Shown one piece after another: positions 1-42,408 of a stretch of 64,000 nucleotides of DNA. How positions within the stretch are numbered: position 1 is the stretch's first letter; every line of letters begins with the position of its first letter. The stretch covers positions 3,184-67,183 of the forward strand of contig JACRFL010000013.1 of NCBI GenBank assembly GCA_016217905.1, written 5' to 3'. This DNA comes from Candidatus Kaiserbacteria bacterium (GTDB lineage Bacteria > Patescibacteriota > Minisyncoccia > Phycocordibacterales > Phycocordibacteraceae). Below the pieces are notes generated by a model. It saw only the letters and a program-made list of their open reading frames with translations. It ran no database searches and had not been told where the DNA came from. Both the position numbers and the translations under genes were made by a program.

Positions 1-524
1 ACGCGAAAAAGATCTTGAGCGAGCTCGCGGGCTCCGGATTCACGATTGCCATTCTCACCGGCGACCGGAAGGAACACGCCGAAACGATGTTCGCCGGCCT
101 GTCGCTCGACATTCGCGCCGACTGCACGCCAGAAGGGAAATACCGTGTCGTCGAGGAAGCGCGGAAGCGCGGAGAGGTCATCGTCATGATCGGCGACGGA
201 CTCAACGACGCGCCCGCGCTCGCGAAAGCGGACATCGGCATCGTCTTCTCCGGCACCGAGAACAGCGCGTCAATCGAAGCGGCCGATGCCGCCATCCTCG
301 GGCACGATCTCCTGCTCATACAGGAGCTTTTCGCGCTCTCGAAACGCTCCGTGAGCATCGCGCGCGAAAGCGTTTACGCCGGCATCGGCCTCTCGACCGT
401 CGGCATGCTCGCCGCCGCGTTCGGTCTCATCGCACCGGTCGGAGGCGCCGTCATCCAAGAAGGCATCGACGTCATAGTCATCGTACACGCCCTGCGCGCG
501 GCATTCCGGCCGCGCGCGGCATAA
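1..524 (+). CDS. C-terminal fragment of a P-type (heavy-metal type) cation-transporting ATPase; 5' end lies outside the window
   Basis: Translation contains the P-type ATPase hinge motif MIGDGLNDAPALAKADIGI followed by two C-terminal hydrophobic helices. The ORF is open to the window edge. Confidence 0.75.
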   Translation, partial: AKKILSELAGSGFTIAILTGDRKEHAETMFAGLSLDIRADCTPEGKYRVVEEARKRGEVIVMIGDGLNDAPALAKADIGIVFSGTENSASIEAADAAILGHDLLLIQELFALSKRSVSIARESVYAGIGLSTVGMLAAAFGLIAPVGGAVIQEGIDVIVIVHALRAAFRPRAA

Positions 525-615
525 GCAAAAAGATGTTCTCGGCGGCGCGCCCTTACCAACATACGAAGGCCGCGCCGCGCCTTGACGCGTCCTGCGAATG
601 CTATTGTAGAAGCAC

Positions 616-1791
616 GTGACGGTTATGAGCGTACTTTTTTGGGTGAATATTATCGCACTTCTCTTTTCCTTCTTCGTCGTTGGAGCTGTTCTCGGCGCGC
701 TCTTCTCCAAGCCGATACGCGATAAGCTCGCCGGCCTCTTGCGCCTCAAGGAGCTTCGACGCTTCCTTCTTCTCGACCGGTCTCTCCGCAATCCAATCCT
801 CAAGCCCGGGACGCACCCGTGGACGGCCGAGGCGGTCATGAATCCGGCAGCGGCCATCCTCGACGGTCGCACATATCTCATATATCGCGCTATCGGCATA
901 GACGGCGTCTCGCGGCTCGGTCACGCGAGCAGTCCAGATGGCATCGCCTTCGACCGGCGCCTTCCCTATCCGGTCTACGTCGCGAGGAATCCGCACAATC
1001 CCGCGACGCATCTGCGACGCTATTCTCCCGTTTTGTATCCCTCGGGCGGCAGCTGGGGCGGGTGCGAAGACCCGCGCATGGTGGTCATTGAGGGGCGCGT
1101 GTACGTTACATTCAATATGTTCGAGAATTGGAAACTCCGCGTTGCGGCCATAGAAATGGACGTGGATGACTTTCTCGCCGAGCGCTTTACCGCCTGGGAG
1201 GGGCCGACCATACTCTCGCATAGCGACCGGGACAAGAACTGGGTGCTCTTCCCCGAGAAGATCGGCGGGCAGTTCGCCGTCCTTCACAGCATCATCGGCG
1301 ACGATGAATATCACGTACGCATCGAATACGTTGACGACCTCGCAACCCTGGCCACGCGGAAGTTCGCGAGCCCCGACCCGCAGAGGGTCCCCGATACGCC
1401 CGTTGCGTGGCACGTCCACACGCGAAGCGCCGGACCGCCGCCCCTCAAGACCGAGAGGGGGTGGCTCGTCCTCTATCACGCCAACGACGCGAAAGAGGGA
1501 CACCGCTATAAGCTCGGCTCGATGCTCTTAGACCTCACTGAACCGACCAGGGTGCTCTATCGCTCTGCGGCGCCCATTCTCTCTCCGGATGAGCCGTACG
1601 AGAACCACGGCAAGCCCGGCATCGTCTACGCCTGCGGCGCGACCGTCCAGGGCGGAAAACTCTTTGTATACTATGGCGGGGCGGACAAGGTCATCTGCGT
1701 CGCGACCGCGCCGCTTGACGCCTTTCTTGACGCGCTCGTCGCGGGCAGCCAGCCCTCGCTCGCAGCGATGACGCCTGCGCGAACTATATAA
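616..1791 (+). CDS. Membrane-anchored GH130-family glycoside phosphorylase/hydrolase (start GTG 616 or ATG 625)
   Basis: N-terminal TM helix. GH130 hallmarks present: NPAAAILDGRTYLIYRAIG, GCEDPRMVVIEG, LFPEKIGGQFAVLHS, C-terminal VYYGGADKVICVATA. Confidence 0.75.
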   Translation: MTVMSVLFWVNIIALLFSFFVVGAVLGALFSKPIRDKLAGLLRLKELRRFLLLDRSLRNPILKPGTHPWTAEAVMNPAAAILDGRTYLIYRAIGIDGVSRLGHASSPDGIAFDRRLPYPVYVARNPHNPATHLRRYSPVLYPSGGSWGGCEDPRMVVIEGRVYVTFNMFENWKLRVAAIEMDVDDFLAERFTAWEGPTILSHSDRDKNWVLFPEKIGGQFAVLHSIIGDDEYHVRIEYVDDLATLATRKFASPDPQRVPDTPVAWHVHTRSAGPPPLKTERGWLVLYHANDAKEGHRYKLGSMLLDLTEPTRVLYRSAAPILSPDEPYENHGKPGIVYACGATVQGGKLFVYYGGADKVICVATAPLDAFLDALVAGSQPSLAAMTPARTI

Positions 1792-1793
1792 CC

Positions 1794-3710
1794 ATGTTCG
1801 TCATCCGCCGAGAGCCGCATAACCCGATCCTCGCGCCGCAGCGCGAGCGCCCGTGGGAGGCGCGCGCCACCTATAACCCTTCCGCCGTGCGTACCGAGGA
1901 TGGCGTACGCCTTTTCTATCGCGCATTCGGGGATCCGGACGCTCTCCAGACGCCCATGGCGGGGCTCTCGACTATCGGCACCGCCTTTGCCGAAGACGGC
2001 GTCCATTTCCATTCACGACAGCAGGTCATCGCTCCTGAGGAGCAGTGGGACATATTCGGCTGCGAGGATCCGCGCGTCACGTTCTTTGAGGGACGCTGGT
2101 ACTGCTTTTATACCGCGCTCGGCGGCTACCCTTTCGGCCCCGACAACATCAAGATCGCGGTCGCTATCGGGGATACGCCCGACAACTTTACCGAACGGCA
2201 CCTCATTACTCCCTTTAATGCAAAAGCGGCGACCCTGTTCCCCGAACGCATCGATGGCGATATCGTGTTACTCCTCACCGCGCACACCGATTGGACGAGC
2301 GAGCACCCGCGGCCGACGATCGCCCTTGCGCGCGCGAAACGGATGGAAGATTTCTTTGATCCAGACTATTGGAATCGGTGGCACGCAATACTCGCCGATC
2401 ATGCACTTCCTGAAATGCGCCGCGGTGATGATGATCATGTTGAAGTCGGCGCTTCTCCCCTTCTCACGCCGCACGGCTGGCTGCTCATCTACTCGTATAT
2501 CCAAAATTACTACGACGAACGCAAACGCATCTTTTCGATCGAAGCGGCGCTCCTCGATCGCGACGATCCACAAAAACTCATTTCGCGTACCGAATCAATA
2601 CTCGTGCCGCAGGAATTTTATGAAGCGTATGGCCTCGTGCCGAACATTGTCTTCCCCACAAGCGCGACGGTCGGTGAAGGCGGCCTCCTCGATATCTGGT
2701 ACGGCGCGGCCGACACCGTCTGCGCGAAGGCGAGCGTGAAGCTTCACGATCTCATGCGCGCGCTTGACCCCGATCGGCCGGCGCGCACTTTCATCCGCGC
2801 GCCGCAGAACCCTATTCTCACGGCGAGGGGAAAAGGCTTTGAAAGCAGAGATGTGTTTAATGCCGCCGCCATCGACCTTAACGGCTCGGTCTACATTCTC
2901 TATCGCGCTATGGATCAGGCGGACACCTCGACCATCGGACTCGCCGTCTCGTCTGACGGCATCGCCATTGACGAACGCTTATCCGAGCCGATATACGTGC
3001 CGCGCGCTGATTTCGAAGCGAAGCGCGGAAATCCTGCGGGCAATTCCGGCTGCGAGGATCCGCGCATCGTGCGCATCGGCGACATGCTCCACATGACTTA
3101 CACCGCCTACGATGGCGTCCACTCGCCCGCCGGCGCGATCTCGTAGATAAGCGTGAGTGACTTTCTTGCACGCCGATGGCAAATGTGGAGCGCGCCGTTT
3201 TTGCTGACGCCCGACAATGTCGACGACAAAGACCTTGCGCTCCTGCCTGAAAAAATCGGCGCAAACTATCTTCTCTATCATCGCGTGAACAATCAAATCT
3301 GCGCCGATCTCCTACCCGACCTCGCCTCGGGCAAGCGGGTGAGCCGCTGTATCGAGGTGATTGGCCCCAGGCGCGGCATGTGGGACGGAGAGAAGGTCGG
3401 CAGTGCAGCCCCTCCCCTCAAGATCGGAGACAAATGGTTGATGATCTATCACGGCGTCTCGCGCCACGCCACCTACCGTCTCGGTGCCGCGCTGCTTGGA
3501 GCGAATGGTACGACGGTTCTTGCGCGCACCGCCGATCCGATCTTCGAACCGCTTGAAGACTATGAAAAGAGGGGCGAGATTGCGAACGTCGTCTTCTCCT
3601 GCGGCGCTGTCGTTCGCGACGATATGCTCTTTCTCTACTACGGCGCCGCCGACAAGGTCATCGGCGTCGCGACCGCGTCGCTCGCGCACATTCTCGATGC
3701 GCTTTCATAA
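1794..3710 (+). CDS. Tandem double-GH130-domain protein interrupted by an in-frame TAG at 3144-3146 (ORFs 1794-3146 and 3153-3710 are one reading frame)
   Basis: Domain A (1794 to about 2760) is a complete GH130 unit (GCEDPRVTFFEG ... IWYGAADTVCAKAS). Domain B starts near 2780 (NPILTARG ... GCEDPRIVRIG ... TYTAY) and continues in the same frame after the TAG (LLPEKIGANYLLYHR ... LFLYYGAADKVIGVATA). The TAG falls in a variable position when aligned to the upstream paralog. Confidence 0.6.
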
Positions 3711-4453
3711 TGCCACCACTCGTCATTTTCGACCTTGACGGCACGCTCGCGGAAAGCAAGCAACCGATCACGAGCGAGATGGGGATGCTCGTTGCGAAAT
3801 TGCTCGACGTGACGCAGGTCGCGGTCGTCTCTGGCGGCGCGCTTTCCCAATTTTTGAAGCAGGTGGTGGCGAAGCTCCCTCCGGATGCGCGCCTTGAACA
3901 TTTATATCTTCTCCCGACATCTGGCGCCGCGCTCTACGAGTGGCGAGGCGACGCGTGGAGCAAAATATACGAGGAGCGTCTCTCCGAAACGGAAAAAGAA
4001 ACCATCGAGACAGCGATACGTGCGGCGGCGAAGGAGACCGGATGTATCGACTTCTCGAAAAGTGCGTGGGGCGAGCGCATCGAATATCGCGGCGGGCAGG
4101 TGACGCTCTCCGCGCTCGGCCAGCAGGCGCCGCTCGACGAGAAAAAGGCCTGGGACCCCGACCACTCGAAACGTCATGCACTCCACGCCGTGCTGAAAGA
4201 ACGGCTGCCTAACTTTTCGGTGGGCATCGGCGGCGCCACGAGCATCGACATCACAAAACGCGGCGTCGATAAGGCATACGGCATTCGAAAACTCTGCGAA
4301 CGTCTCGGTATTCCGGAATCCGAGGTGCTCTATATCGGCGACGAGCTTGCCTCCGGCGGCAATGACGAGGCGGTCTACAAAACGAACGTGCGTGCGGAAA
4401 ACGTCGGCGGCCCGTCCGATACCGAACGCCTTATCAAAAGCATGGTGAAATAA
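3710..4453 (+). CDS. Eukaryotic-type phosphomannomutase (PMM/Sec53 family, HAD-IIB)
   Basis: FDLDGTL nucleophile motif at the N-terminus. PMM-like blocks IEYRGGQVTLSALGQ, SVGIGGATSIDITKRGVDKAYGI, YIGDELASGGNDEAVY. The start overlaps the GH130 stop (TAATG). Confidence 0.7.
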   Translation: MPPLVIFDLDGTLAESKQPITSEMGMLVAKLLDVTQVAVVSGGALSQFLKQVVAKLPPDARLEHLYLLPTSGAALYEWRGDAWSKIYEERLSETEKETIETAIRAAAKETGCIDFSKSAWGERIEYRGGQVTLSALGQQAPLDEKKAWDPDHSKRHALHAVLKERLPNFSVGIGGATSIDITKRGVDKAYGIRKLCERLGIPESEVLYIGDELASGGNDEAVYKTNVRAENVGGPSDTERLIKSMVK

Positions 4454-4484
4454 TAAATCGATTCGCTTCGCCGCGCGCCGGACA

Positions 4485-6152
4485 CTATTGCGAGCGCATG
4501 AGCCGCACGAGGCGGATGGTTTCGAAGGAGTGGCGGCCGCCAAGAGCGTGGAAAACGGGCGAGAGGCGGTCGCCGCCCTCCGCAAAAAGCGTTTCGTGAA
4601 TCTCCTCAAGCGCGCCCTCCGACACGAGGTGAGCGAAATCCGCGCGCACGAGACGGCCGAGCTCGGCGAGCTCTTCGAGGTGCTTTACAATAGTCGAAGC
4701 GACGAGTCCGCGCGCTTTCGCCGCATCCTTCAGATTTTTTGCATCTCGCACTGCCTGCAGGGTTTCCGCCAATCTTCCCGGCAACCCTGTTTGGTTTTTG
4801 CTTACACCTTTCCCCTTGCCGCTTACGTCTTCAACCGACGCCCCTCCCATCGCTTTGACAAACTTTTTCTGCAGTGCGAGTTTTTCCATCTCGGGCATGT
4901 CTGCGAATGCGTCCCGCGCCGCCTCTGAGGCGGCGCGAAAATCCCTGTCTTTCTCAAGTATTTCCGGATGCACTTCAAGCGCGCGCTCGTTGAGTCCGGT
5001 GAGGTACACCCCCGCAAGCCGCCGCACCCGGGAAAGCGCGACGTACCCCTGTCCGTATTCAAATGCCCTCGAGAGATCCATGATGGCAGCGTCCATGCTC
5101 ATCCCCTGGCTCTTGTGGACCGTCATTGCATAGGAAAGACGCAGCGGTATCTGCGAGATGCTCGCCTTCACCTTCCCCTGCTCTTCGAGTTGCCATTCCA
5201 TCGGCTCGGTGGTGATCTTCACGCCATCTTTCGTCTTTACGATCGGCATCCCGTCCGTATCCCAGCCGGTCACGACGCCGAGAGTCCCGTTGACAAACTT
5301 CCCCTGCGGCGAGTTCTTGGTGAACATTACTGCCGCTCCCTCTTTCAATTCCAACACTTCGGGCGAGAGGCATCCGCGCTTGAGCCCATCCACAAGCGAA
5401 TCCTTCCCCTTCGAGCTCATGCGGAATTTCTTCGCCGTGCCCGGGAGCTTTGCGAGCTCCTCCGCATTGATGCGATCCACGTCCGCGTTATGCGAGAAGA
5501 GCTTCGGCGCGTTCGCGGGAACCGCCGAAGGGTCGGTGTGGTGCCGCATCAACTCCTCGTAGTGCGCCTCCTCGACCTCTCCCGAGCGTATCGCGGAGAG
5601 TACGCCGAGGAATTCGGTGTCGTCTTGCCGGTATTGCTCGGTGAGATAGCAGACGATCGGGTTGAGCTCGCGCCAGAGCTTCGACGCGAACGCGAACGCG
5701 ACTTCGCGGCCTCTTGAGACCGGCGGAAGCTGGAAGAAATCTCCGACGAGAATGGCCGTGAGACCGCCGAATGGCTTGTCCGTGCGTCGCACTTCTCGAC
5801 AGACCGTATCCGCCATCTCAAATGTCGAAGAAGAGAGCATTGAGATCTCCTCGATGATGAGCATCTTTGCTTTCTGGATGCGCCGCGCGACATGCTCTTT
5901 ACTGGCGATGCGGTCGACATCCGCGCGCGAGAGCGACTCCGCGACGCCGATGCCGCTCCAGGAGTGGAGCGTCATGCCCGCGACATGCGTCGCGGCGATG
6001 CCGGTCGCGGCGGTTACCGACGGATCGATACCCGAGGCGCGCAGCCATGCGATGAACTCGTTTATCGTGTGCGTCTTCCCGCTCCCGGGGCTCCCGGTGA
6101 GGTACACGTTCGCGCCGGTCTTCAGTATCGTGAGCGCTTCAGCTTGAGTCAT
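4485..6152 (-). CDS. PIF1/RecD-family ATP-dependent DNA helicase
   Basis: Walker A GSPGSGKTHTI, PIF1/AAA_30-like core, UvrD_C_2-like C-terminal part with helix-hairpin-helix tail. Confidence 0.75.
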   Translation of the reverse strand: MTQAEALTILKTGANVYLTGSPGSGKTHTINEFIAWLRASGIDPSVTAATGIAATHVAGMTLHSWSGIGVAESLSRADVDRIASKEHVARRIQKAKMLIIEEISMLSSSTFEMADTVCREVRRTDKPFGGLTAILVGDFFQLPPVSRGREVAFAFASKLWRELNPIVCYLTEQYRQDDTEFLGVLSAIRSGEVEEAHYEELMRHHTDPSAVPANAPKLFSHNADVDRINAEELAKLPGTAKKFRMSSKGKDSLVDGLKRGCLSPEVLELKEGAAVMFTKNSPQGKFVNGTLGVVTGWDTDGMPIVKTKDGVKITTEPMEWQLEEQGKVKASISQIPLRLSYAMTVHKSQGMSMDAAIMDLSRAFEYGQGYVALSRVRRLAGVYLTGLNERALEVHPEILEKDRDFRAASEAARDAFADMPEMEKLALQKKFVKAMGGASVEDVSGKGKGVSKNQTGLPGRLAETLQAVRDAKNLKDAAKARGLVASTIVKHLEELAELGRLVRADFAHLVSEGALEEIHETLFAEGGDRLSPVFHALGGRHSFETIRLVRLMRSQ

Positions 6153-6181
6153 CCGAATACTCTACCAGATGCGCGCGGATT

Positions 6182-6721
6182 TCAACGAATGCCGGTGTCG
6201 CAGGAAATGTTTGCTGCGACGTACCCGGTCGGAGGGACGGAGACATCGACTGGCAAACAGCGCGGGAGCGCCTTACCGCCTGACGGGGCCAGCGTGTAGG
6301 AACCGGGAGGAAGCGAAAAGTTGAACGTGCCGCTTGCATCCGAATTCCCGATGATAAACGGCAATTCCGAACCGGCGCGGTACACCGTTATTGCCGCCGC
6401 GTACGGCTTGTCGGCGCACGTATGGTCGGGCGGTATACGAGCGACCGGGCAGGTCGGCCCGAGCATAACCGTCCCGCGTACGCCGGAATTGTAGGGTAAG
6501 ATACCGACTCCGCCCGTGGTGCTTGCGGCGTCTGCCGTGGGACACGGGGCGAATTCACAGTTGGGGCCGGTGCGGCCTACCGAGGAGCCGTCGGGGCAAA
6601 TTTTGGCCTCCTGTGTGCATGCCCGCGGGCCGGGCGCATTCGCCACGCGCGCACCGATTGCCCAAAGAGCAAGAAGAACCGCTATCGCGACGATGCCAAT
6701 AACGAGCGCATACTTCCTCAT
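6182..6721 (-). CDS. Secreted Cys-containing hypothetical protein
   Basis: N-terminal signal/TM segment (MRKYALVIGIVAIAVLLALWAIGA) followed by a Cys/Pro/Gly-rich mature part. No recognisable family. Confidence 0.5.
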   Translation of the reverse strand: MRKYALVIGIVAIAVLLALWAIGARVANAPGPRACTQEAKICPDGSSVGRTGPNCEFAPCPTADAASTTGGVGILPYNSGVRGTVMLGPTCPVARIPPDHTCADKPYAAAITVYRAGSELPFIIGNSDASGTFNFSLPPGSYTLAPSGGKALPRCLPVDVSVPPTGYVAANISCDTGIR

Positions 6722-7045
6722 ACCCTAAGCATAGCAGGTTATTTCTGTACCTGGTGTTCAGAACAAAATACATTGACATTGATAGCTCGACGTGTTTGAA
6801 TGTGCCTAACGTCGTTTGTTCATTTTCATTTTGCAGCAGGTTACGACGTTTCCTGCGGGCAAAGGAGAAAGCCATGGAATCAAGCACACATGCAAGACTC
6901 ATCGTACCGCAGGTATACCGACCACGTGCGGGTGAGCGAGATCTTCACCTGACGACCGTTGCAGTTACATAGGGCTGCCCTATGTATTTTCTATGTATTT
7001 CAAATTGTGCATGCTCTCATTTCCCGATTTTTGATGTCCTAGTTT

Positions 7046-7477
7046 CTACCAAGTTTCTTTTGTCCTAAGATACGTCCGCACGATTTTGACTAGAGAAACG
7101 ATGACGAGAATGATGTAGAGGATGCCGATGACAAGAGCATCGAACGCGCCCGATACTGCGCCGCTGATGCCTATGCCCCCGCCGCCGCCCGCGTTTTGTA
7201 AAAAGAGCGTCACCGCGATAATCACCGGCACCCACCACCGTGCGAATCTCCACCACGCCTGGAAGACTTCGTCTTTCAGGCGATACGTGATGAGGGAGAA
7301 AATGAGAATTGGCACTAAAGGGAACACCGAGACAGCAACAATTTCGTAAGAATCATTGCAAAAAAACCAATTTTTCTGATAACAAGACAGGATTTGGTTC
7401 AAGATAGCCGGAAGAAATAACAAAATGCTTCCAACTATTCCCAGAAACAATACATTCTTTTTTGTATTCATAATCAA
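7046..7477 (-). CDS. Small integral membrane protein (hypothetical), in low-GC island
   Basis: Four predicted TM helices and a Gly run (GGGGGIGISG). Local GC is visibly lower than surrounding genes. Confidence 0.5.
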   Translation of the reverse strand: MIMNTKKNVLFLGIVGSILLFLPAILNQILSCYQKNWFFCNDSYEIVAVSVFPLVPILIFSLITYRLKDEVFQAWWRFARWWVPVIIAVTLFLQNAGGGGGIGISGAVSGAFDALVIGILYIILVIVSLVKIVRTYLRTKETW

Positions 7478-7482
7478 AAAAA

Positions 7483-10224
7483 TTAATAATTCACCTCGAT
7501 CTTCCCCTTATTAGTCGTAAGATCGATGACAGCTAATCCCGGTAAGATTTTCTTGATCTCTCTTTCACTCTTATCTTCTTCGCTCTTTACCTCTTCCTCA
7601 ATCCTTGTCACGTTCTTCTTCGCATCGTAATGACCCTCGATCTTCAGAGTGCCCACTGTTGTTTTTTCTTCAAGCTCTTTAATGGCTTCGGTTTTGTCTG
7701 TGGACCACTCATATTTTAACATCGTCTTAGGGAGCAGTTCCGCAGATATGCCGCTGTATCGGAGCTCTTGGATTTCCAATTTGAGTTCGTGTTTTCCTTG
7801 ATTGAGTTTCTTGAAGACGATCTGCAGTGTGTTGCCGGCTTCGTCGGCAATGGTGGTGCTCGTGGCTGTTGTTAGGACAGTGGTACTGGAGAGATTATCA
7901 GTCCCGATAATCTTAAATTTTTGCGATGCCGGATCGAAAGTCAGGACTGCTTCCGGCGGTGTGATGTCGAACACAATCGTCTTTCCGATTTCCGACTTGA
8001 ACGAGAAGTCGGTCGTGCCATTCCCATCATAGTCGAGAAGAAGAGGTGAGGCGTTTTGGAGGGTGCCGTCGATAAATGTCATAGTCGCTTTGGTGCTTGT
8101 TGCAGACGGGATGGCGGAGAGGGTGCTTGAGGCGATAATGGTATTGCTCCCGTCTATTTCTTGCATATCAAGCGTGAATGAGCCTGTGGCGTAGCCGTCA
8201 AGGTTGAGGGTGAGAGGAGTGTTCTTGGGAACGGTGATCACTTGAACTTCGCCGTAGCGCTTAAAGCGGCCGCCGGGGATGGTGGAAGTGGCAGCATTAA
8301 CGACGTTGCCGAGGTTATCGGTGGCAGAGAGATTGAGAGGCGAGTGGAGAAGGAAGCGGAGACGTTTGTCGGCAACTGCGTCGGTGGCAGGTTGGGTGGT
8401 GAAAATAAATGCCAGTGGTGTTGTTGAGGTGGAATTGGTGAGAATGTTTTGAACCAGCGTGCGGAGTTCGGGGATTTCGAGGATGTCGGCGTGCTTGCGC
8501 GGGACATTTCCATTAAGCCACCATTTATTATAATCCTCCAAATTCACCCAGTACTTCCCCGCTGTCGAAGCAGTCGTTGTCCACAGTGCGCTCGGAACGA
8601 GTACCGTGCCATCTCCTTCCACAACCTCTTTGGGGCTGTAGGTGATTGCCGGAGAGACGGTGCAGGTGCGCACATCTGACATATCACTGCAATACGTTTT
8701 CCTCCCTTCCTGGTATTCAATCGTCGCAAGGGTATCCTCTCCCCACCCGGCGATTTCGTAGAGCTGCACTCCCTGCGGAGGCGCCCACGTATCAAGAGCA
8801 TTATGAACCGCTTCCGCTTTGGAAAGAAGTACCGCATTCCCTACACTCGGGTAGATGAGGTCGCTTGGTGATGATGAAGCGAGACGTCACGCGTCGGCAA
8901 TGAAGTTTTTAAGTTGCGCTCCGTCATGAATCGTACTGCCATAACGCGCGCGGAATGCGGCGAGAAAATCTGAATCATCAAACTTCACGACCGGATTATC
9001 GACATAGGTGAAATAGTTTGCCGACGGGAGAAGGTTGTACGCACTTGGCATATTTGCTGTAAGCGTGCGAGCGGTTTCGGGAGAAAGGAAAACAGAAAGC
9101 CAATCCTTGGGCAATCCCTGTTCGTATCCGTGAAGAATCGCGCTAATCGCTTGCGGCGTTCCCGCCTGCGGCACGGCAATAAAAATGATCTTGTCGATGA
9201 GTTTGGCGGCTTCCGTATCGACGAGCTTCTGGATAAGCGCTTTGGTCATGAGTCCGCCGTTACTGTGCGCGACGATGGTCACCTTGCCCGTCTTCGAGCT
9301 TTTAGCCAGTCGGCGGAGCTCTTGACTGATATAGGGCGACGAAGTCGCCCTAAGGTCGCCGGAATAGTAGATGCGGCCGTCGGGAATGGGAACGGGCACC
9401 ACCAGACTCGTGGTAACGACGTGCCCGGATCCATCGTAGGCGGTGATGGTAATTTTAATTGAGGCGGCGATACTGAGAGCGTTCGACGGACTGTCGTTAA
9501 GAATAAATGGCACACGAGTGAATGAGCCATCGACCGAGGAAGCGATCGCTGTTGTGAGCAAATTTTTGCCATAGTCAATTCCACCGCTGGAACCAAAAAT
9601 CGGATTCCCTAGTGCGTCCCATAACGTTTCCCTGATCTGATATATGGTTAAAACGCTACCGGTGCCGTCCGATAACCCGCTCAAATACATAACGTCGCCT
9701 TTTTGGGGCGGCACGACTGAGAATGAAATGTCAGTGAGCGAAATCGTCGGCGGAACGTTGTCGATTATTATCTTCGTGCTACCCGTGGCAACATTCCCCA
9801 CCGCGTCAGTGGCTATCACCGAGATGGTCTTAAGACCATCGGGAACATCCGCACCGATAGTTAGCGGCCAGAATTTAAAAAAATAATCCGGGTAATAATC
9901 GGCACCATTGATATAAAAATGATACGGATTATTTCCCCCCGATAAAGGCGTAGTGGTCGGGCTTAAGAAACCTATCTGTGAAAGATCGGCTGAGATGGTC
10001 GGTACCCCTTGCCAGCTTTGCACGTTAATTGTAATCTGCTGGTTCGCGTCACCCGCTTTAAGTGTGGTTTGATACATTCCGTATCCCAAAGTCGAAATCA
10101 TCGGCAGGTCTCCAATTCTGACTTGAGCCACGTACAGTGGTGAACTCGCCTGAACTAAGGACGGAAAAATAAAAAACACGAGCGAAAAGAAAAACGGCCA
10201 AAAAACTTGTGCACGGGTGTGCAT
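7483..10224 (-). CDS. Giant secreted alpha/beta-hydrolase (lipase/PGAP1-like) domain protein; ORFs 8887-10224 and 7483-8769 are joined in frame across a TGA at 8887-8889
   Basis: N-terminal signal peptide (MHTRAQVFWPFFFSLVFFIFPSLVQASS). Lipase-type nucleophile elbow VTIVAHSNGGLMTKAL. The frame is continuous from the TGA to the downstream ORF (…FIADA*RLASSSPSDLIYPSVGNAVLL…GVQLYEIAGW…) with no independent ATG or RBS for the second ORF. Atypically low GC. Confidence 0.55.
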
Positions 10225-10273
10225 CGTATCTAATGTAGCACCAATACTCGTGGAACGAGTATACTATGCACAT

Positions 10274-14137: not shown

Positions 14138-16135
14138 TTATTCGGCCGGGGTCGCCTCCGTCGGAGCGCTCTCGACAACTGCCGGAGCGCTCTCCGCCAC
14201 CACTGCCGCCGGCTCCGCTGGAGCGACTGCGGGCTCGGGGATGGCTGGCTCGACCGGCGTTTCCACGGCCGCTTCCGGCTCCGGAGAGAGAATGTCCTCT
14301 TCACGTGTGACGGCCGGCTCGACCGCCGCCGGCTGATCGGGAGCGGCCGTCTCCGCGGGAGCGGTCTCTTGAGACGTTCCCTCTGTCGAGATAGTCGTTT
14401 CAGACGCCACGATCTCGGTCTCCTCGGACGCACCTTCCTCGACCGGCAGCGGCGCCACGACGTTCTCCGGCCCGATGAAGAGGGGGAACGGATCATAGAT
14501 TCGGCCGCTCACGCTGCCAGAATTGAGCATCGGATTTTCCGGACCGATGGCGACGAGATGGATCCAGATGTAGCCGAGGAATCCGGACGGCACCGTCCAG
14601 GTAAACGCGCCGTCGTTTCCAGTAGTTTCGACTATCGTGTGCGTCGTGTCACCCAGACTTATTTTTCCGTCGTGGTTTACGTCCTTCACGTAGTAGATGC
14701 CGATGTCGAGGTCGCCGTCGGGGCCGTTGTTATTCGTCGCCGTCCACTTGATCTCGTAACTGTGCGTCCAGTACCACGTGTACGAGCCTCCCTCGTCCGG
14801 GTAGACGAGATCGATCGAAGGCGGCACGAGTTCTTTCCAATCGGAGGGCGCGTCGGTGTCGTAACCGGAAGGTACTCGAGCAAGGACGTTGCCCTCGGCG
14901 ACATTTGCCGCCCCGGGATCCCAGACGTTCGGATTGTAATTCGTCCATCCGGTGTCGGGGGTGCCCCAGTTCATCTGGTCGACGATAATCCTGTCGGGAC
15001 GTTTGAGGACAAGCATGTCGGCGTCGTTATCCAAACCGCCCCCGATTTTCGAATGTATGTTGATTTCGGTCACCTCGCTCGGCAGATACCAGTACGCGGG
15101 CAGGCCGCTCGAAACGGTCGTTGAGGTGGCGGTGGTTGACGTGGCAACGATGACCGCATATTTCTGCGCGGGAATGAGGAGTGTCGTCGGCAGGGTGTCA
15201 CACGAGGTGTTGTCGCAAATCTGCCATCCGGAAATATCCAAAGGCACGTTTGTCTGATTGTAGATCTCCACCCATTCGTTCGTACCCTCCGCACCGCGCT
15301 CCGGCGTTTTCACGTTGTAGTAGATCTTGTTGATCCGGAATCCCCACGAAGCGAGATGGTTTTTTACTTTTTCCGTATCGTTAAATCCGCCACCCTCGTA
15401 GCTCGGGTAGTCGTGCCGCGTTTGCCAGCCGTTGTAATCGATGTCGAAGTCGCAGGTGCGGTTTTGGAGATTGCTGGTCCCCGCCGTGTAGGCGAATTCC
15501 CACGGGTCGAGCGCGGTTGTCGTGGCGGTGAGGAGCCCCGTAAGAGGACCGTGATACATCTGGGTGCCCCCGCGCGTCGCGGTAACGTCAAGCCCCGAGC
15601 AGAAATCGGCATCGCCGGTAAAGTTGGTCGAGGTGGCGAAGTATTGAAACGGATTGCTCGCTTGCGGGTCGATCGCAACCGTCTTTTTCGTAACATCTCC
15701 GGGCGGCATCGACACGGCCGTACTCGTCGCCTGCCAGCCGGAAGTTGTCAGCGAGAAATCGACCGAACCCGCCCGGAAGGCATTCTCGGTCGAGCTCTCG
15801 ATATCGTTGTAGTATCCCCTTGTACTGCCGAGGCCGGTGATGCCGACGCTGTTAAGGCCGATCATGAGCGTGACGGCGAGCGCTTTAAGCGACAGCCGCG
15901 GCGTCGCCCTTATAAAAAACGGAGAGAGGACGCTCTTGCGCCTGTTCGCCCGCGCCGCGCGCGGCGCGCACGCGGCGCGCGGGCGCAGATCGAGCACATG
16001 CGCAGACGACGCGACGCGACGCGCCTTCCTCCTGGCGACCCTTCTCACCGGCACGGAAACACGCGCAGCGACAGTCGCTTTTTCTTTTTTCCGGGGAGTC
16101 TTCTTTATCGCTCCCGTTTTAATATGTACCGCCAT
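14138..16135 (-). CDS. Lamin-tail-domain (LTD) protein with SipW-cognate-like signal region and Pro/Glu/Ala-rich C-terminal tail (start uncertain: 16135 or internal MIGLNS)
   Basis: N-terminal K/R-rich segment then TM (LKALAVTLMIGLNSVGITGLG). This is followed by GYYNDIESSTENAFRAGSVDFSLT, resembling the TasA/camelysin SipW-cognate motif. LTD signature GTNEWVEIYNQTNVPLDISGWQI ... IPAQKYAVIVA. C-terminal low-complexity PEPEAAVETPVEPAIPEPAVAPAEPAAV. Confidence 0.65.
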   Translation of the reverse strand: MAVHIKTGAIKKTPRKKEKATVAARVSVPVRRVARRKARRVASSAHVLDLRPRAACAPRAARANRRKSVLSPFFIRATPRLSLKALAVTLMIGLNSVGITGLGSTRGYYNDIESSTENAFRAGSVDFSLTTSGWQATSTAVSMPPGDVTKKTVAIDPQASNPFQYFATSTNFTGDADFCSGLDVTATRGGTQMYHGPLTGLLTATTTALDPWEFAYTAGTSNLQNRTCDFDIDYNGWQTRHDYPSYEGGGFNDTEKVKNHLASWGFRINKIYYNVKTPERGAEGTNEWVEIYNQTNVPLDISGWQICDNTSCDTLPTTLLIPAQKYAVIVATSTTATSTTVSSGLPAYWYLPSEVTEINIHSKIGGGLDNDADMLVLKRPDRIIVDQMNWGTPDTGWTNYNPNVWDPGAANVAEGNVLARVPSGYDTDAPSDWKELVPPSIDLVYPDEGGSYTWYWTHSYEIKWTATNNNGPDGDLDIGIYYVKDVNHDGKISLGDTTHTIVETTGNDGAFTWTVPSGFLGYIWIHLVAIGPENPMLNSGSVSGRIYDPFPLFIGPENVVAPLPVEEGASEETEIVASETTISTEGTSQETAPAETAAPDQPAAVEPAVTREEDILSPEPEAAVETPVEPAIPEPAVAPAEPAAVVAESAPAVVESAPTEATPAE

Positions 16136-16158
16136 ATATCGGTGTGGAGGTCAGACCT

Positions 16159-16704
16159 TCATAGCGCGGCAGAATCACCGAGAGGATCTTCTCCTTTCGG
16201 CCGCTTCATCTTCCGCACCTCCCTCCGGATATTCTGCGCTTCGTCGAAGACGACGATGACAGCCGGCACGCCGATGAGAAGAACGAATCCGAACGGCTTT
16301 TTCGCGAAGTCGAGCAGGTAGCCGAGATACGGGACCGAGAAGAGCACCTTCCCGATTACCTCGCTTTGCCGCACCAGCTGCGGATCGGAATCTTCGTTCG
16401 CGTCTCCCTTCGTCGTGTAGTAGAAGACGCCGCCCCTCACCTCGTCAGAGACGATGCGATGGGTCGTCGGGACTTGCGTCTTCGTGTCCGGCCCGAACAT
16501 GATGACGTCTCCCACCGCGTACTTCCCGAGAGGCTTGACCACCGTGAGCGCGCCCGTCTTGATGGTCGGCTCCATTGAGCCCGACTGAACTATTTTCACC
16601 TCGATATTCCCCGGTATCGGCACCAGGCTCACCACGAGGAGCGCGCCAAGCGCAAGGACGGCGCCGACGAGGACGTAATATGCGGTTTTGAAGAGTGTGT
16701 GCAT
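16159..16704 (-). CDS. sipW: Signal peptidase I, SipW/archaeal-eukaryotic type (S26B)
   Basis: N-terminal TM then SGSMEPTIKTGALTVV catalytic-Ser block typical of SipW/Sec11-type peptidases. Sits between the TasA-like genes and the LTD gene. Confidence 0.8.
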   Translation of the reverse strand: MHTLFKTAYYVLVGAVLALGALLVVSLVPIPGNIEVKIVQSGSMEPTIKTGALTVVKPLGKYAVGDVIMFGPDTKTQVPTTHRIVSDEVRGGVFYYTTKGDANEDSDPQLVRQSEVIGKVLFSVPYLGYLLDFAKKPFGFVLLIGVPAVIVVFDEAQNIRREVRKMKRPKGEDPLGDSAAL

Positions 16705-16798
16705 GCGTGGCTCCGCTCGAGCCCCGGCTCTTCCGCGCCGCGAACATGCGGCGCGGAACCTGCCGATACTCGAGCGCTACTCGGTCAAGAGAGATCTC

Positions 16799-18127
16799 TT
16801 ATTCAGGAGTGTAGGGCGGACGACTCGCAATACTCGTGCACCTGAAGCCAGAGTTGCTCCTTGTTTGCTCTGCGTACGCCGTCAAAGACGCCGAGAATGA
16901 ATCCGACTGCGCAATGTTACCCATTCCAGAACCGTTGCAGCCGAATGCGCTGCCTGGAGTAGCGGTGAGCGTTCCTGCACACCATACAAGACCGATATTC
17001 TTGGTAGTGGTGGCGGTGAGGAATTGACCATTGCTGGGATCCATACTCATGATGCTGGTGAGCGATGAGAGCGGTCCGACGCCGCCGAGAGGAGTCTCGC
17101 CCACGTCATAGAGACCATTCCCGTTGGTATCTCCCCAGGTGAATACATTGAGGAAGTTGGATAACTCGCCTTTTCCAGTTGGATTACCAACCCCGTTCGC
17201 GTCACCCGCTGCTATTTCAGGAGCGAGTGGTTGTGCCGGGTTCTCTTGGTCATCTTTGTCGCCCACGATAAGGCATGAGTAGGCATCGTTGCTCGACACA
17301 TGAAGCGATATTTCATTTGTACCCCAGTCAGCCGGCTTTACATCTCCAAAGTTGAAGAATGTATCTCCTTGGCCAAGGTCCTTTTCCGTCCAAAGCCGGC
17401 AGACCTGCTGGAAGGCAGAATCTGCTTTACACTGCGCCGGATCACGATGAATATTCAGCTTGAAGAGAAGTCCAGCCGGATTCCCTGAAGAGCCTCCGCC
17501 GGCAGACATGTTACGAACAACTATGTCAAGCGTGTTCTGTCCGTTCACCATCGCTCCCATGAAGGCGGCCTCTTGAGCGCCAGTCAAGGAAACAGCCGGA
17601 TTATAGTTGAACTCGAGAGGGAGCTTATCGACAATAGTTGTTCCGTTGAGGATAATCTTGTACCCGTTGTCAGCCGCGAGAGCGAGATCTAAGTTCACGC
17701 TCACGACAGAGCCGTTCCACTGGAACTTGTTCTCGAATGTGTACTCTGCGTTATTGGTCGTATCGTTCAACGTTGTCGGATCAGTCGCCCAGATCCACTG
17801 CGCCGGAGCGAGAGCGGCTTCGCTCTGCCAGGCCGGATGTGGGCTGCTCACGTCAACAGCCGGAATGGGGAAAGGACCCTGATTTGAGGCTCCCGCGCTT
17901 GCTGCCACGACCTTTGTTGCTGTAGAGCTGTACACATTCACACTGCACGTCTCACAGTCTACGCCATTGTAGGTCTGCTTCGTGTGATCCACCTTGAGGT
18001 CAATGGAACCCGCGGTGAAGATGTTGCCCGTCGAGGTCTCGGTGTCAGCGTAGAACGCGATGGTCCCGCCGACCGCGAGAGCCGCGACGACCGCTATCGT
18101 CCCAGCGCTAAGAAGAATTTTATTCAT
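16799..18127 (-). CDS. TasA/camelysin (CalY)-family protein with SipW-cognate class signal peptide
   Basis: N-terminus MNKILLSAGTIAVVAALAVGGTIAFYADTETSTGNIFTAGSIDLKVD matches the TIGR04088-type SipW-cognate signal (GT.A.F.D.E.S.GN.FTAG..DL). Confidence 0.8.
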   Translation of the reverse strand: MNKILLSAGTIAVVAALAVGGTIAFYADTETSTGNIFTAGSIDLKVDHTKQTYNGVDCETCSVNVYSSTATKVVAASAGASNQGPFPIPAVDVSSPHPAWQSEAALAPAQWIWATDPTTLNDTTNNAEYTFENKFQWNGSVVSVNLDLALAADNGYKIILNGTTIVDKLPLEFNYNPAVSLTGAQEAAFMGAMVNGQNTLDIVVRNMSAGGGSSGNPAGLLFKLNIHRDPAQCKADSAFQQVCRLWTEKDLGQGDTFFNFGDVKPADWGTNEISLHVSSNDAYSCLIVGDKDDQENPAQPLAPEIAAGDANGVGNPTGKGELSNFLNVFTWGDTNGNGLYDVGETPLGGVGPLSSLTSIMSMDPSNGQFLTATTTKNIGLVWCAGTLTATPGSAFGCNGSGMGNIAQSDSFSASLTAYAEQTRSNSGFRCTSIASRPPYTPE

Positions 18128-18148
18128 GTTCTTTTGTTAGGCTGGTGA

Positions 18149-18973
18149 CTATGCCGACCTCGGTGAACAAAGGAATCCTGGATTGTTTCGAGATTGCACT
18201 GCACGGAAGCTCACATCAGCAGTCAAACTGTCGGTCTGCGTGATGTTGTTTACCTGGGAACCATTGCAGACGATACCTCCAGTTGAATTGGCCGGGGTTC
18301 TTGGGCTGGTCGTACCCATCCCATCCTGCTCAAGAGGAGCTGCCGAAATAGCGCCAAAACACCACGCCTTACCGATGAAGCGCTCTGAACCGCCCGGCAA
18401 TGGACCTCCTTCATCCGTCCAGATGTTCGTTTGAGAGTCAGCGAGGGCAACCGACGATGTCGCTGAGGCCGAGGCAAGCGTTCCCGAAGGGAGCGGCGTT
18501 TCGTTGTTCTCTAGAACATTGTCTCCGTCGTCAGCCCACCACATGAAGTTTACTGCCTGTGCCAATTCTCCGTTACCGGCACCATCTGATACATCACCAT
18601 CCTGCCTTTCCGGTTCCGTAATACCGTTATCATCGTTACTCGTCAGCTTTACGTCAGCACAAACGTAGGCATCGTTGTTGTTTACGTGGAGACTGATAGT
18701 GTCCTCCCCTCGATCGCCTGGCTTAAGATCAAGAAAATTAAAGAATTTCTCAATCGTCAAATCCTTTAATTCCCAAGTCGTGTCTTGATTCAGAACACCG
18801 TTATAATAACTTTCGTTATCAACCTTCAGATCAATCGCGCCGGCGGTGAAGGTGTTGCCGGTTGATGTCTCCGTGTCCGAGAAGAACGCCCCTGTCGCGC
18901 CTAAAGTGGCCGCAACGACGAACACAATCACTCCCAGACTCAAGAGAATCCTTTTGTTAAGAAGTGCTGTCAT
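18149..18973 (-). CDS. TasA/camelysin (CalY)-family protein with SipW-cognate class signal peptide (start at MTALLNKR, 18973)
   Basis: MTALLNKRILLSLGVIVFVVAATLGATGAFFSDTETSTGNTFTAGAIDLKVD. The same conserved signal block as the neighbouring paralog. The tracker start 19060 adds an Arg-rich extension that was rejected. Confidence 0.78.
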   Translation of the reverse strand: MTALLNKRILLSLGVIVFVVAATLGATGAFFSDTETSTGNTFTAGAIDLKVDNESYYNGVLNQDTTWELKDLTIEKFFNFLDLKPGDRGEDTISLHVNNNDAYVCADVKLTSNDDNGITEPERQDGDVSDGAGNGELAQAVNFMWWADDGDNVLENNETPLPSGTLASASATSSVALADSQTNIWTDEGGPLPGGSERFIGKAWCFGAISAAPLEQDGMGTTSPRTPANSTGGIVCNGSQVNNITQTDSLTADVSFRAVQSRNNPGFLCSPRSA

Positions 18974-19092
18974 AACGTATTCTTTGTTTACGCACCTTCT
19001 AAATAGGTGTCTGCAAACACGAATAGAGCGCGTTCGCACCCGCAGACGCCCCGTCTGCAACTGCCATAAGTAGATACCTCCCTAAGATCAAA

Positions 19093-24859: not shown

Positions 24860-26101
24860 CTAGTACGACTTCAGGTGCCGCGCGCTCTCGTGCGTACGAA
24901 TCTTCTCAAGCGCCTTCGCTTCAATTTGACGGATGCGCTCCCGAGTCACGCCGAATTCCCTCCCCACTTCTTCAAGCGTGTGGTAAATGCCGTCCATGAG
25001 GCCGTGACGCATCTCGAGGATCTTGCGCTCTTTGGGCGAAAGGTCGGAGAGGATGGCGCGTACTTGTTCCGCGAGGATGCGCTCCGAGGATTCCTGTATC
25101 GGGGACGGGATCTTGTCGTCGGGGATGAAGTCGCCCAAGGTCGACTTCTCGTCGTCGTCGGAGCCGACCGGATTCTCAAGCGAGAGGGTGTCCTGATTGA
25201 TTTTCTCTATCTGATATATCTTCTCCGGCTCCACCCCCATCTCCACCGCGATCTCCTCCGCCTGCGGGTCGCGACCGAGCACCTGGGCGAGGCGGCGCGA
25301 TACCTGCTTGTATTTGGCGATGGTCTCGACCATGTGGACGGGGATGCGGATGGTGCGCGACTGATCCGCGAGCGCGCGCGTAATCGCCTGGCGAATCCAC
25401 CACGTCGCGTACGTCGAGAACTTGTATCCTTTCTTCCAGTCGAATTTGTCCACCGCGCGGAAGAGGCCGAGGTTCCCCTCCTGGATGAGGTCGAGGAGAG
25501 TGAGGTCGGGACTGCGTCCGACGTATTTCTTCGCAATGGAGACCACGAGGCGAAGATTGCTCCTCGCGAGAATGTTGCGCGCTTCTGCGTCCCCCTTCTC
25601 GATGCGCTTGGCAAGCTCGCGCTCCTCAGCGGCGGTCAGGAGCGGATACTGCCCGATCTCGCGCAGGTAGATTTGAATGGAGTCGTAGCTCGTCGAGTGG
25701 CGATCTTTGATGTTGCGTGTGGCAAGGTACTCGTCTGCGGCGTCCTCAAGCATGCCGCCCTCGAGCACGTCAACGCCGGCCGCGGCGAAGCGCTCGTAGA
25801 GCGACTCGAGGAAGCTTACATCGTCCTCGATGTGCGGGAACGACTTGAGAATTTCGCTGTAGGTCACATAACCGCGCTCCTTTCCTTTCTCGATGAGCGA
25901 GTCCGCCGAGAGCGACTTCTGCACGTACGCTTTCGCCTTCGCGCCGCGCAGGGCGGCGTGGACGATTTGTTTCTTCGTACGCCTGGGCGCGACACGACGC
26001 TTCGCGACTTTTCTCTTCTTCGCGGGCGCGCGCCTCTTCGCGGCGCGCTTGAGTCCCATCCGAAACGTCCTTTTTTTCTTGCGTATGATTGATTTTGCCA
26101 T
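24860..26101 (-). CDS. rpoD: RNA polymerase sigma-70 factor
   Basis: Regions 2-4 ([13 protein letters not shown], helix-turn-helix [23 protein letters not shown]). Confidence 0.9.
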
Positions 26102-26122
26102 GTGAAAATGAATAGAGGGGAA

Positions 26123-27814
26123 CTATGCACCGAGTGCGGCGAGCCGCGCGGAAAGCTTTGCACACTGTTTTTGCATATCACCGACCAACAAGGCGTCTTC
26201 CGATGCCTCGGCCCTGCGTAGCGCCCTTACCGCTTCCTGATACGCCTCGCGGATAACCGCTTCTTCAAGGGCGCAAAGAAGCTCGTCTCCCGCCTTCTCG
26301 TCCGGATTTTCGCCGAATGTCTGTTCTGCATAGAACAGGGACGATTCCAAAAGCGCGATAGGCGGCAGTTCTTGAGCTTCGGTAATCCGACAATACTCCG
26401 ATGTGACGCGCTTCGCAAGCGGCGTATCGGGATAAGCCCGGATAACCGCAAGAAGTTGTTCCGAACGGATTTCCGATGCCGAACGGGCCGGCGGCGTTGT
26501 TTTTCGCATGCTCGCCGTATCCGTGTCGACCGTAAAATCTTTCGGCAAGCGTTTGAGCGATTCGCGCACGGCCTCGCCGGAGATCCCGAGCGCGCGGGCG
26601 GCCGCTTGTACGAAATGTTCGCGCTCCATCGGGCTCGGTATCGCGTTGATGAGCGGAAGCACGATGCTTTCGGCCAGCCGCAAGAACCGGTGAGGGTCGC
26701 GCTCCTGCTCGGCGAGAACGCCGAGAAAGAACTCTACGACCGGTTTAGCGGCGGCGACGCGCTTGCCGAATTCCGCCGCATCTTCGCTGATAAGGTCAGC
26801 CGGATCTTTTCCGAAAGGCAGTGCGACTGCCTTGACCCGAAGTCCCTGGCGAAGGGTCAGTTCGGCCGCGCGCGCCGTCGCTTTGAGTCCGGCGGGATCG
26901 GCGTCAAGAACAAGCATCACGTTCTCGCTGTAGCGCTTCATAAGACCCGCGTGACGGCCAGTGAGGGCCGTGCCCGAGAGAGCGATCGTGTTCTGGAAGC
27001 CCGCCTGGTGCGCCAAGATAACGTCTATCTGCCCTTCAACGAGCATCGCGAAGCCGCGCGTGCGAATGGCGTCTTTCGCCATATCCATACCGAACAATAC
27101 TTCGGACTTGTGGTAGAGCTCGGTCTCGGGGCTGTTGAGATACTTCGCCTGCTCGTCCGCGGAGAGCGCGCGGCCGGTGAAGCCGACCACGCGGCCGACG
27201 GCGTCGCGTATCGGGAACATCAGCCGATTGCGGAAGCGGTCGTAGTAGGTGCCCGGCTTCCCGTCGGCTTCTTTGATGAGTCCCGCGGCAAGCAATTCCT
27301 GCGTGGAGAATCCTTCCGCAGTCATCGCCTCAAGCAGCGCGCGCCATGCCTCCGGCGCATACCCGAGCCGCCAGGCGCGGATAGTTTCCTCCGTAAGACC
27401 GCGCCGCTTCGCATACGGAGCGGCGGGACTCTCGGCGAGCTTGCCCGCATACCATTCGCTCGCGCGATTCATCAGGGCGCGCAGACGCTCTTTCTTCGAT
27501 GTATCTTCTTTCCCGGCACTACCATATATGGTAGTGATTTGGACGCCAGCCTTCTCGGCAAGAATCTTGAGCGCGCCCTTGAAATCAACTCCTTCGATCT
27601 TTTCAATGAAAGAAAAACCGTCGCCGCCCTCCCCACAACCGAAGCAGTGCCACGTCCCGCGTTCGGAACTCACGTGAAAGGACGGCGTTTTCTCTTTATG
27701 GAACGGGCAGAGGCCGCGCATGGACTTTCCCGCCCGCGTGAGCTTCACATAGGGGTTGATAATCTCGACGATGGAGAGACGGTCTTTGATTTGGGCGACC
27801 GTGTCTTTCGCCAT
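26123..27814 (-). CDS. dnaG: DNA primase
   Basis: Zinc-binding CPFHKEKTPSF ... HCFGCG, TOPRIM domain (MLVEGQIDV, VLDADPAG). Confidence 0.9.
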   Translation of the reverse strand: MAKDTVAQIKDRLSIVEIINPYVKLTRAGKSMRGLCPFHKEKTPSFHVSSERGTWHCFGCGEGGDGFSFIEKIEGVDFKGALKILAEKAGVQITTIYGSAGKEDTSKKERLRALMNRASEWYAGKLAESPAAPYAKRRGLTEETIRAWRLGYAPEAWRALLEAMTAEGFSTQELLAAGLIKEADGKPGTYYDRFRNRLMFPIRDAVGRVVGFTGRALSADEQAKYLNSPETELYHKSEVLFGMDMAKDAIRTRGFAMLVEGQIDVILAHQAGFQNTIALSGTALTGRHAGLMKRYSENVMLVLDADPAGLKATARAAELTLRQGLRVKAVALPFGKDPADLISEDAAEFGKRVAAAKPVVEFFLGVLAEQERDPHRFLRLAESIVLPLINAIPSPMEREHFVQAAARALGISGEAVRESLKRLPKDFTVDTDTASMRKTTPPARSASEIRSEQLLAVIRAYPDTPLAKRVTSEYCRITEAQELPPIALLESSLFYAEQTFGENPDEKAGDELLCALEEAVIREAYQEAVRALRRAEASEDALLVGDMQKQCAKLSARLAALGA

Positions 27815-27817
27815 AGG

Positions 27818-30800: not shown

Positions 30801-31537
30801 GCGTGCTCGTAACGCGCCGCGAGAGTCTTCTCAAGCTCCGTGAGGTCAATCGAACGGAAAATATCATAAATAGCCTCGGCCCCAATCCTCGCTTCAAAGA
30901 GACCGCCGTACTTCACCGAGAAGCGGTGATACTCGAGCTCGTCGAGGACCTTGCCGACGACGACGCCTTCGATCTCGGATTTTGCGAGCGTCATCTTCTC
31001 CTTCAGAGCATCGCGATCTTTATCGCTTCCGAGCGACTTGTACTTCGACTTATACTCGCTCTCGAGCTCGGCGAGGAGGCGCTTCTTTTCCTCTTCGACG
31101 ACCTTCGTGACGATGTAGCCCGCGAAGTAGACGACCTTCTCGATATCGGCCGCGGAAGCACCGAGCAAGAGCGCCATACGCGAGGGCACCGAGCGGAGGA
31201 ACCAGATGTGCGCGACCGGCGTGCACAACTCGATGTGGCCCATGCGTTCGCGGCGCATGATGGAGCGGGTGATCTCGACGCCGCACTTGTCGCAGACGAT
31301 GCCCTTGTACCGGATGCCCTTGTATTTGCCGCAATAGCACTCGTAGTCCTTTTCCGGGCCGAATATCTTCTCGTCGAAGAGCCCGTGCTTCTCCGAACGC
31401 TGGGTGCGGTAGTTGATGGTCTCCGGCTTCGTCACTTCGCCCGAGGACCACGCGAGGATGCGCTCGGGCGAGGCGAGCGTGAGCCGAAGCGCGTTCCACG
31501 TATCGCGCGGAAGAAGTTTACGGGGGGTGAAGGACAT
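27818..31537 (-). CDS. rpoC: DNA-directed RNA polymerase beta' subunit
   Basis: Zn finger CYCGKYKGIRYKGIVCDKCG, catalytic NADFDGDQM. Confidence 0.95.
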   Translation of the reverse strand: MSFTPRKLLPRDTWNALRLTLASPERILAWSSGEVTKPETINYRTQRSEKHGLFDEKIFGPEKDYECYCGKYKGIRYKGIVCDKCGVEITRSIMRRERMGHIELCTPVAHIWFLRSVPSRMALLLGASAADIEKVVYFAGYIVTKVVEEEKKRLLAELESEYKSKYKSLGSDKDRDALKEKMTLAKSEIEGVVVGKVLDELEYHRFSVKYGGLFEARIGAEAIYDIFRSIDLTELEKTLAARYEHAGAAEREKLAKRLSLIAGLIASGVRPEWMFLTRIPVIPPALRPMVALEGGRHATSDVNDLYRRVINRNNRLKKLIDIHAPEVILRNEKRILQEAVDALLDNSVRKGGASAGAMTLAQRRPLKSLADYLKGKQGYFRQNLLGKRVDYSGRSVIVVGPDLELDECGLPKHMALELFRPFVIAGLLERELAFNIRGAGRLIEDGVAEVWELLEEAIKGKHVLLNRAPTLHRQGIQAFRPRLIEGDAIQLHPLVCNAFNADFDGDQMAVHVPLSEEAQWEAKNIMSANKNILKPGSGEMIVLTGKPLDIILGVYWLTKAVDAAKGEGEYFASPNAAILTSEYGAIDLRAKVRVLPMSGKEKYAAFENRPFETTVGRLLFNTVLPADYPFVNETITKKALAWIVNDCIARYGLDAVPDIVNKVKRFGFDYATRSGISWAIDDVSVPKEKARIVAEAVTKVAKIEEDYKNGLLSEEEKRRMAIEIWQGSKQAVEEQVALELDPMGSVADMVRSGARGTLGNLTQMAGMKGLIQNTAGQTIEVPITSSMIEGLNPIEYFMSTHGARKGLTDTALGTAKAGYLTRRLFDVAQDSIVTEKDCGTKRGVKINRVSASGIQINYAEALRGRVLAEDAKSEDGMTLFKKGHYLSAIDAEDLSASSIVSIVARSAMSCETRYGVCQTCYGMDLTTQELVDLGEAVGTIAAQAIGEPGTQLTMRTFHAGGVASVGGDITSGLPRVEEVFEKRSPKNPAVISKSDGIVTEIKEEGREKVIVVAPLAGQGKKDGSAYEYLAPYPRVPLVKEGDTVTKGRILTDGSADLDDLFEHAGRATVQEYIITEASKIYELQGAPVSRKHLEVVVKQMFSRVKITDAGDTDYSVGDVVEDWEFAKSVAEMEEAGKMAPSAHEIVLGIKESALSRRSFLSAASFEQTTKILINAALRGSVDRLRGLKENVILGRLIPSGTGFSGSKKFAYIKKLQAERPAPTYESRTTSFAPRTPRAL

Positions 31538-31577
31538 ATGCGTGATGTTTAAATTTTTAAATGTTTAAATATTCCAT

Positions 31578-42407: not shown

Positions 42408-42408
42408 A

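Follow-up and report, generated by a model that had tools for sequence, protein, structure and literature searches.

An in-frame TAG inside a tandem GH130 gene of a Candidatus Kaiserbacteria MAG: probably a consensus error or a minority allele

When a stop codon interrupts a conserved bacterial gene and the reading frame continues undisturbed behind it, does the stop belong to the biology of the organism or to the record in which it was deposited? This question is raised by a stretch of 64,000 nt (hereafter the window; 58% G+C) from a GenBank contig of 76,600 nt that belongs to a Candidatus Kaiserbacteria MAG (locus tags HY972_*), in which a TAG lies inside a gene for a protein with two GH130 domains. 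The initial annotation of the window had kept three explanations for this codon, namely a base-call error, a very recent pseudogenisation and a programmed read-through. Here, we examined the site in orthologs, in a second assembly of the same organism and in the light of the stop codons used in the window. The TAG is real in the deposited record, but it probably does not belong to the biology of the organism, and it is not novel.

The interrupted gene and its neighbourhood

The open reading frame that starts with ATG 1794 meets the TAG at 3144-3146, and the same frame then stays open to the TAA at 3708-3710, giving 639 codons when both stops are counted. The locus contains the following features:

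625-1791, plus strand: upstream single-domain GH130 paralog HY972_02565, 388 aa, with an N-terminal hydrophobic segment (Pfam, alignment)
1794-3710, plus strand: tandem GH130-GH130 gene, 638 codons with 3144-3146 taken as Ser (Pfam, orthologs)
1794-3146, plus strand: truncated product HY972_02570, 450 aa, MBI5405895.1, a hypothetical protein in the GenBank annotation
3144-3146, plus strand: in-frame TAG, with A as its second base (3145), where the Logan contig L001 has C (TCG, Ser451)
3183-3710, plus strand: downstream fragment HY972_02575, 175 aa, MBI5405896.1, a hypothetical protein in the GenBank annotation, with an internal ATG as its start
3710-4453, plus strand: phosphomannomutase (PMM)-like HAD-IIB hydrolase, part of the conserved cluster, whose start overlaps the GH130 stop (TAATG)

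The 450-aa upstream part matched the GH130 profile PF04041 with 163 bits (cut-off, 26 bits) in two stretches, the better one covering residues 5-324, and the 187-aa part encoded downstream from the TAG matched profile positions 155-318 of 320 (121 bits, E=6.7e-35). Since GH130 matches are present on both sides, the TAG lies inside the second GH130 domain, ∼40% into it, and the 450-aa product consists of an intact first domain followed by ∼115 aa of the second. Domain 2 can be aligned over its full length with both domain 1 and the upstream paralog (DFLARRW versus DFLAERF), and the profile match across the domain places it in the GH130 family. These results bear out what the initial annotation had described, i.e. 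a stop within the second domain without any frameshift and flanks that align with the upstream paralog. Two potential start codons, GTG 3153 and ATG 3183, follow the TAG in frame, and no Shine-Dalgarno-like sequence was found by reading the sequence upstream of either of them. If the gene were translated as written, the product would be released after 450 aa with its first GH130 domain intact and its second beta-propeller broken, and the downstream part would be unlikely to be produced.

Domain 2 gave the best match to solved GH130 phosphorylases (E=6.7e-51 to 5.9e-33), the nearest structures being those of a beta-1,2-mannobiose phosphorylase (7FIP), a 1,2-beta-oligomannan phosphorylase (9FJ8) and Lin0857 (5B0P). 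As judged from its sequence, the product of the tandem gene is a GH130 enzyme that is closest to the beta-1,2-mannobiose and 1,2-beta-oligomannan phosphorylases, and the adjacent phosphomannomutase-like HAD gene fits a role in mannose-1-phosphate metabolism. The cluster as a whole (616-6152) is composed of the genes for the membrane-anchored GH130 protein, the tandem GH130-GH130 protein and the PMM-like HAD-IIB hydrolase, followed by a convergent gene for a Pif1-type helicase. Its gene order is kept across related Kaiserbacteria/Paceibacterota genomes (33 loci, L004-L036, some of them incomplete). The composition of the cluster suggests a clade-typical module for beta-mannoside phosphorolysis and mannose-phosphate metabolism.

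The TAG site in orthologs and in a second assembly

Homologs of the read-through protein number in the thousands; they are found in MAGs of Candidatus Kaiserbacteria, Paceibacterota and other Parcubacteria. The best 120 of them are all uninterrupted, mostly exactly 638 aa long, with 77-85% identity over 100% coverage, and in the column of the TAG 117 have a Ser and the remaining 3 a Thr. At the DNA level, a TCN codon occupies the site in 33 of 33 GTDB species-representative genomes and in L001 (TCG in 13, L001 included, TCA in 8, TCT in 7 and TCC in 6). The use of all four synonymous codons with Ser held constant indicates purifying selection on this residue. Moreover, no internal stop was found in the 27 loci that have a full-length tandem gene. 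Altogether, the uninterrupted orthologs, the TCN codon and the lack of internal stops point to an old, conserved single ORF, and therefore neither a pair of separate ORFs nor a conserved recoding site fits. The initial annotation had considered that the two ORFs would be genuinely separate if orthologs lacked the downstream half, which is contradicted by the fusion of both halves in the orthologs. The TAG does stand, as would a stop in a pseudogene, where functional orthologs have a sense codon.

For the comparison with a second assembly, four Logan contigs of run SRR12113407 were used, and 12,940 nt were compared at the DNA level:

window 1-4498: L001 (4857 nt), one mismatch at 3145, A here and C there (TCG, Ser)
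window 4924-8064: L037, no mismatch
window 41969-44084: L003, no mismatch
window 55809-58993: L002 (3185 nt), one mismatch at 58099, TGA in pheS here and AGA (Arg) there

Thus, only two differences were observed in the 12,940 nt, and both create a stop codon (C>A and T>A on the plus strand). An exact-sequence look-up found the intact 638-aa GH130 and 244-aa pheS products in Logan only and their fragments in NCBI only, and the 450-aa product was not found in the Logan contigs. Twelve other proteins of the window, seven of which extend the DNA comparison, are identical in NCBI and Logan, with no near-identical variant seen. In the ∼21 kb examined, no synonymous or missense difference stands beside the two nonsense ones. 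The C-to-A change is therefore private to the deposited record, and the stop is not reproduced in independent data from the same organism. Signs of secondary decay are likewise missing from the gene, as the 187 codons downstream from the TAG are open and identical to those of the intact copy.

The organism appears in only one Logan run, from which we infer that the MAG and the Logan contigs share one read set. As Logan assemblies often break where variation is unresolved, some polymorphic sites may be hidden at the contig ends, which probably also interrupt at least four ORFs (dnaG, dnaE, Pif1 and that of a 442-aa protein). Exact-pattern scans with N at the variable base returned nothing from the GTDB representative genomes or the JGI metagenomes, so that the strain is absent from these two collections. 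Nothing relevant was found in the literature on the run accession or on in-frame stops in CPR. We also considered whether the stop had been added after deposition, and rejected this because the fragments of both genes (MBI5405895.1 and MBI5405896.1 for the GH130 gene, MBI5405940.1 and MBI5405941.1 for pheS) are in the GenBank annotation.

Companion stops and stop codon usage in the window

According to the initial annotation, the TAG is one of three events of the same type in the window. The other two are:

8887-8889, minus strand: in-frame TGA inside the 913-codon gene (7483-10224) of an LCAT-like lipase surface protein; Arg or Trp at this site in homologs
58097-58099, minus strand: in-frame TGA inside pheS (57809-58543); in L002 the codon is AGA (Arg), the only mismatch in 3185 nt

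Conserved genes are indeed interrupted by both, but they are minus-strand TGA codons and not TAG, and only one of them resembles the GH130 stop in its distribution. The stop in pheS behaves like the TAG, with a sense codon in the Logan contig. It sits directly ahead of a motif of 13 protein letters, and the gene is represented in GenBank by fragments of 148 and 79 aa (MBI5405940.1 and MBI5405941.1, respectively). Unlike the TAG, the stop at 8887 is supported by the second assembly: the 445-aa truncated product of the lipase gene (PF02450 and PF24096) is on record from both NCBI and Logan, and for this reason the TGA is probably real. The evidence for this site is at the protein level, as the DNA comparison with L037 ends at 8064. 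Among the homologs, 33 have Arg and 18 have Trp at this position. The lipase gene with its TGA lies in the first of two stretches (7046-10263 and 60612-64000) whose third-position G+C is 0.42-0.58, versus ∼0.66-0.82 for typical coding ORFs elsewhere in the window; these stretches may have been acquired or be under a different constraint.

The nature of the two differences from the Logan contigs deserves attention in its own right. We computed that 3.2% of the possible single-base changes in these genes create stops, and the probability that two differences of two are nonsense is ∼1e-3. By a hand calculation, a pair of differences drawn at random as 3% of all those in the window would have been accompanied by about a dozen others in the 12.9 kb, and none was seen. 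Simple random error does not account for this nonsense excess.

To which extent are TAG and TGA used as ordinary terminators? The ends of 23 genes, nearly all of them supported by Pfam, were checked; TAG terminates five (those of the Pif1 helicase, hisS, rpoD, dnaG and an M73-like protein) and TGA terminates eight. The domain matches of dnaG, rpoD, hisS, rpoC and rpoB reach the natural C-termini at TAG or TGA stops. TAG is a normal terminator in the window, and is thus neither rare nor unused in this function. No tRNA gene was found in the 64 kb. Nor was any hairpin found after the TAG that could act as a downstream stimulatory structure, the region 3135-3234 having a folding energy of -22.3 kcal/mol against a mean of -26.7 for shuffled sequences (z=+1.29).

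A composition scan for in-frame stops proved too permissive because antisense frames look coding in GC-rich DNA, and same-strand junctions were checked with Pfam instead. The plausible junctions at 27818 (between rpoC and dnaG), 26123 (between dnaG and rpoD) and 21481 (between bPH and hisS) are ordinary gene boundaries by this measure.

Several other arrangements in the window were recorded. On the minus strand, rpoB, rpoC, dnaG and rpoD follow each other head to tail (24860-34754); rpoC, dnaG and rpoD share one reading frame, with a single codon between the stop of rpoC and the start of dnaG. In this unusual arrangement, the rpoBC and dnaG-rpoD operons are fused. Another arrangement on the minus strand (14138-19060 and 52321-52998) brings together the genes for a signal peptidase I, a lamin-tail-domain protein and two M73 proteins of the camelysin/TasA-like type, with that for a sortase elsewhere in the window, and recalls the sipW-tasA fibre locus of Bacillus. 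Finally, a 939-aa ORF (48244-51063, minus strand) has an unusual second-position G+C of 0.63, and its product may be low-complexity or repetitive.

Origin of the TAG and comparison with known systems

In our view, the A at 3145 is likely to be a consensus error or a minority allele in the MAG, the gene of the organism itself being intact; we infer that the TAG does not represent the dominant genotype. The private C-to-A change at 3145 turns the strictly conserved TCG codon of Ser451 into TAG; in the sequence of events that we propose, the bulk of the population would carry the intact 638-codon gene. The stop would most likely have entered the record through an error in the consensus, or because the MAG assembler took up a minority allele, and no special decoding mechanism for TAG would be involved. 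This proposal is strengthened by the private stop in pheS: the gene is essential, and such an allele would be unlikely to be dominant in a viable population.

The alternatives differ in what they demand of the organism. A real and very recent nonsense mutation, dominant in the source population of the MAG, would represent the incipient pseudogenisation of the second GH130 domain, with the first domain and the upstream paralog still functional. The presence of the TAG in the GenBank deposit, and not in the window alone, is in line with such a mutation, as is the fact that NCBI and Logan products share a comparable in-frame TGA at 8887. Moreover, the organism could tolerate losing one GH130 domain out of three, and zero divergence of the flanks fits a very young mutation. 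However, the sole independent assembly has TCG and no Logan contig encodes the 450-aa product; the parallel private nonsense change in pheS indicates that such changes were not filtered by viability, and the ∼21 kb examined hold no accompanying synonymous or missense differences. On balance, we regard a dominant nonsense mutation as unlikely, yet as the only alternative that carries appreciable weight.

A decoding of the TAG, and of the TGA in the other two genes, by programmed read-through, suppression or recoding would restore the 638-aa protein. The maintained frame with two fully conserved flanks, and the occurrence of three in-frame stops in 64 kb, including one within an essential gene, would agree with it. 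Against this stand the lack of a stop at the site in all 120 homologs, all 33 species genomes and the otherwise identical L001, the ordinary use of TAG at five and TGA at eight of the 23 gene ends checked, the lack of tRNA genes in the window and of any structure behind the TAG, and the fact that two different stop codons would both have to be suppressed. We consider read-through very improbable and, of the three explanations that the initial annotation had listed, we reject this one as far as 64 kb of sequence allow; a base-call error and a recent nonsense mutation are retained, with preference for an error or a minority allele. Least probable of all is a split gene, in which a 450-aa and a ∼175-185-aa polypeptide would reassemble into a functional second GH130 propeller. 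Two CDSs are indeed annotated in GenBank, and GTG 3153 and ATG 3183 are available behind the stop; however, neither is preceded by an initiation signal, all 27 full-length loci are uninterrupted with no split ortholog among them, and a single base in an identical background separates this sequence from the intact gene.

If the TAG is an error or a minority allele, as we favour, the result is mainly one of annotation and quality control: single private bases have caused the conserved tandem GH130 enzyme of 638 aa, like pheS, to be annotated in GenBank as a pair of 'hypothetical proteins'. To infer gene loss, pseudogenisation or a deviation of the genetic code from these stops in a Kaiserbacteria MAG would be misleading. 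If the stops were dominant in a viable CPR population, the nonsense codon in pheS would imply that read-through is strong there; the evidence points otherwise. There is only a very slim chance that the stops are real and dominant and that TAG and TGA are efficiently read through even in pheS, for example through suppressor tRNAs or a weakened release factor whose genes would lie outside the window, which would amount to an early stop-codon ambiguity in this Parcubacteria lineage. To our knowledge, no deviation from the standard code has been described in the lineage concerned.

With respect to known systems, the product of the tandem gene resembles the GH130 beta-1,2-mannoside phosphorylases (7FIP, 9FJ8 and 5B0P) by a PF04041 match in both of its domains, and differs from them in being a tandem two-domain fusion that adjoins a third, membrane-anchored paralog. 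Stop codons are recoded in several systems, including UGA as Gly in Gracilibacteria and Absconditabacteria (code 25), TAG in some phages and the codon of pyrrolysine. Such systems show many in-frame stops throughout the genome, loss of the codon as a terminator and a dedicated tRNA. The GH130 locus shares with them an in-frame stop in a conserved CPR ORF with the frame kept, whereas TAG and TGA are normal terminators here, the stop is unique to one record and the orthologs have Ser. A close parallel is offered by nonsense single-base differences that arise in MAGs as consensus errors or minority alleles: as in those cases, a single assembly carries the base, an independent assembly has the same flanks with no decay downstream, and the conserved sense codon is a single mutation away (TCG to TAG). 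What sets this locus apart from ordinary random MAG error is that both differences are nonsense, which a rate of 3.2% per random change does not predict.
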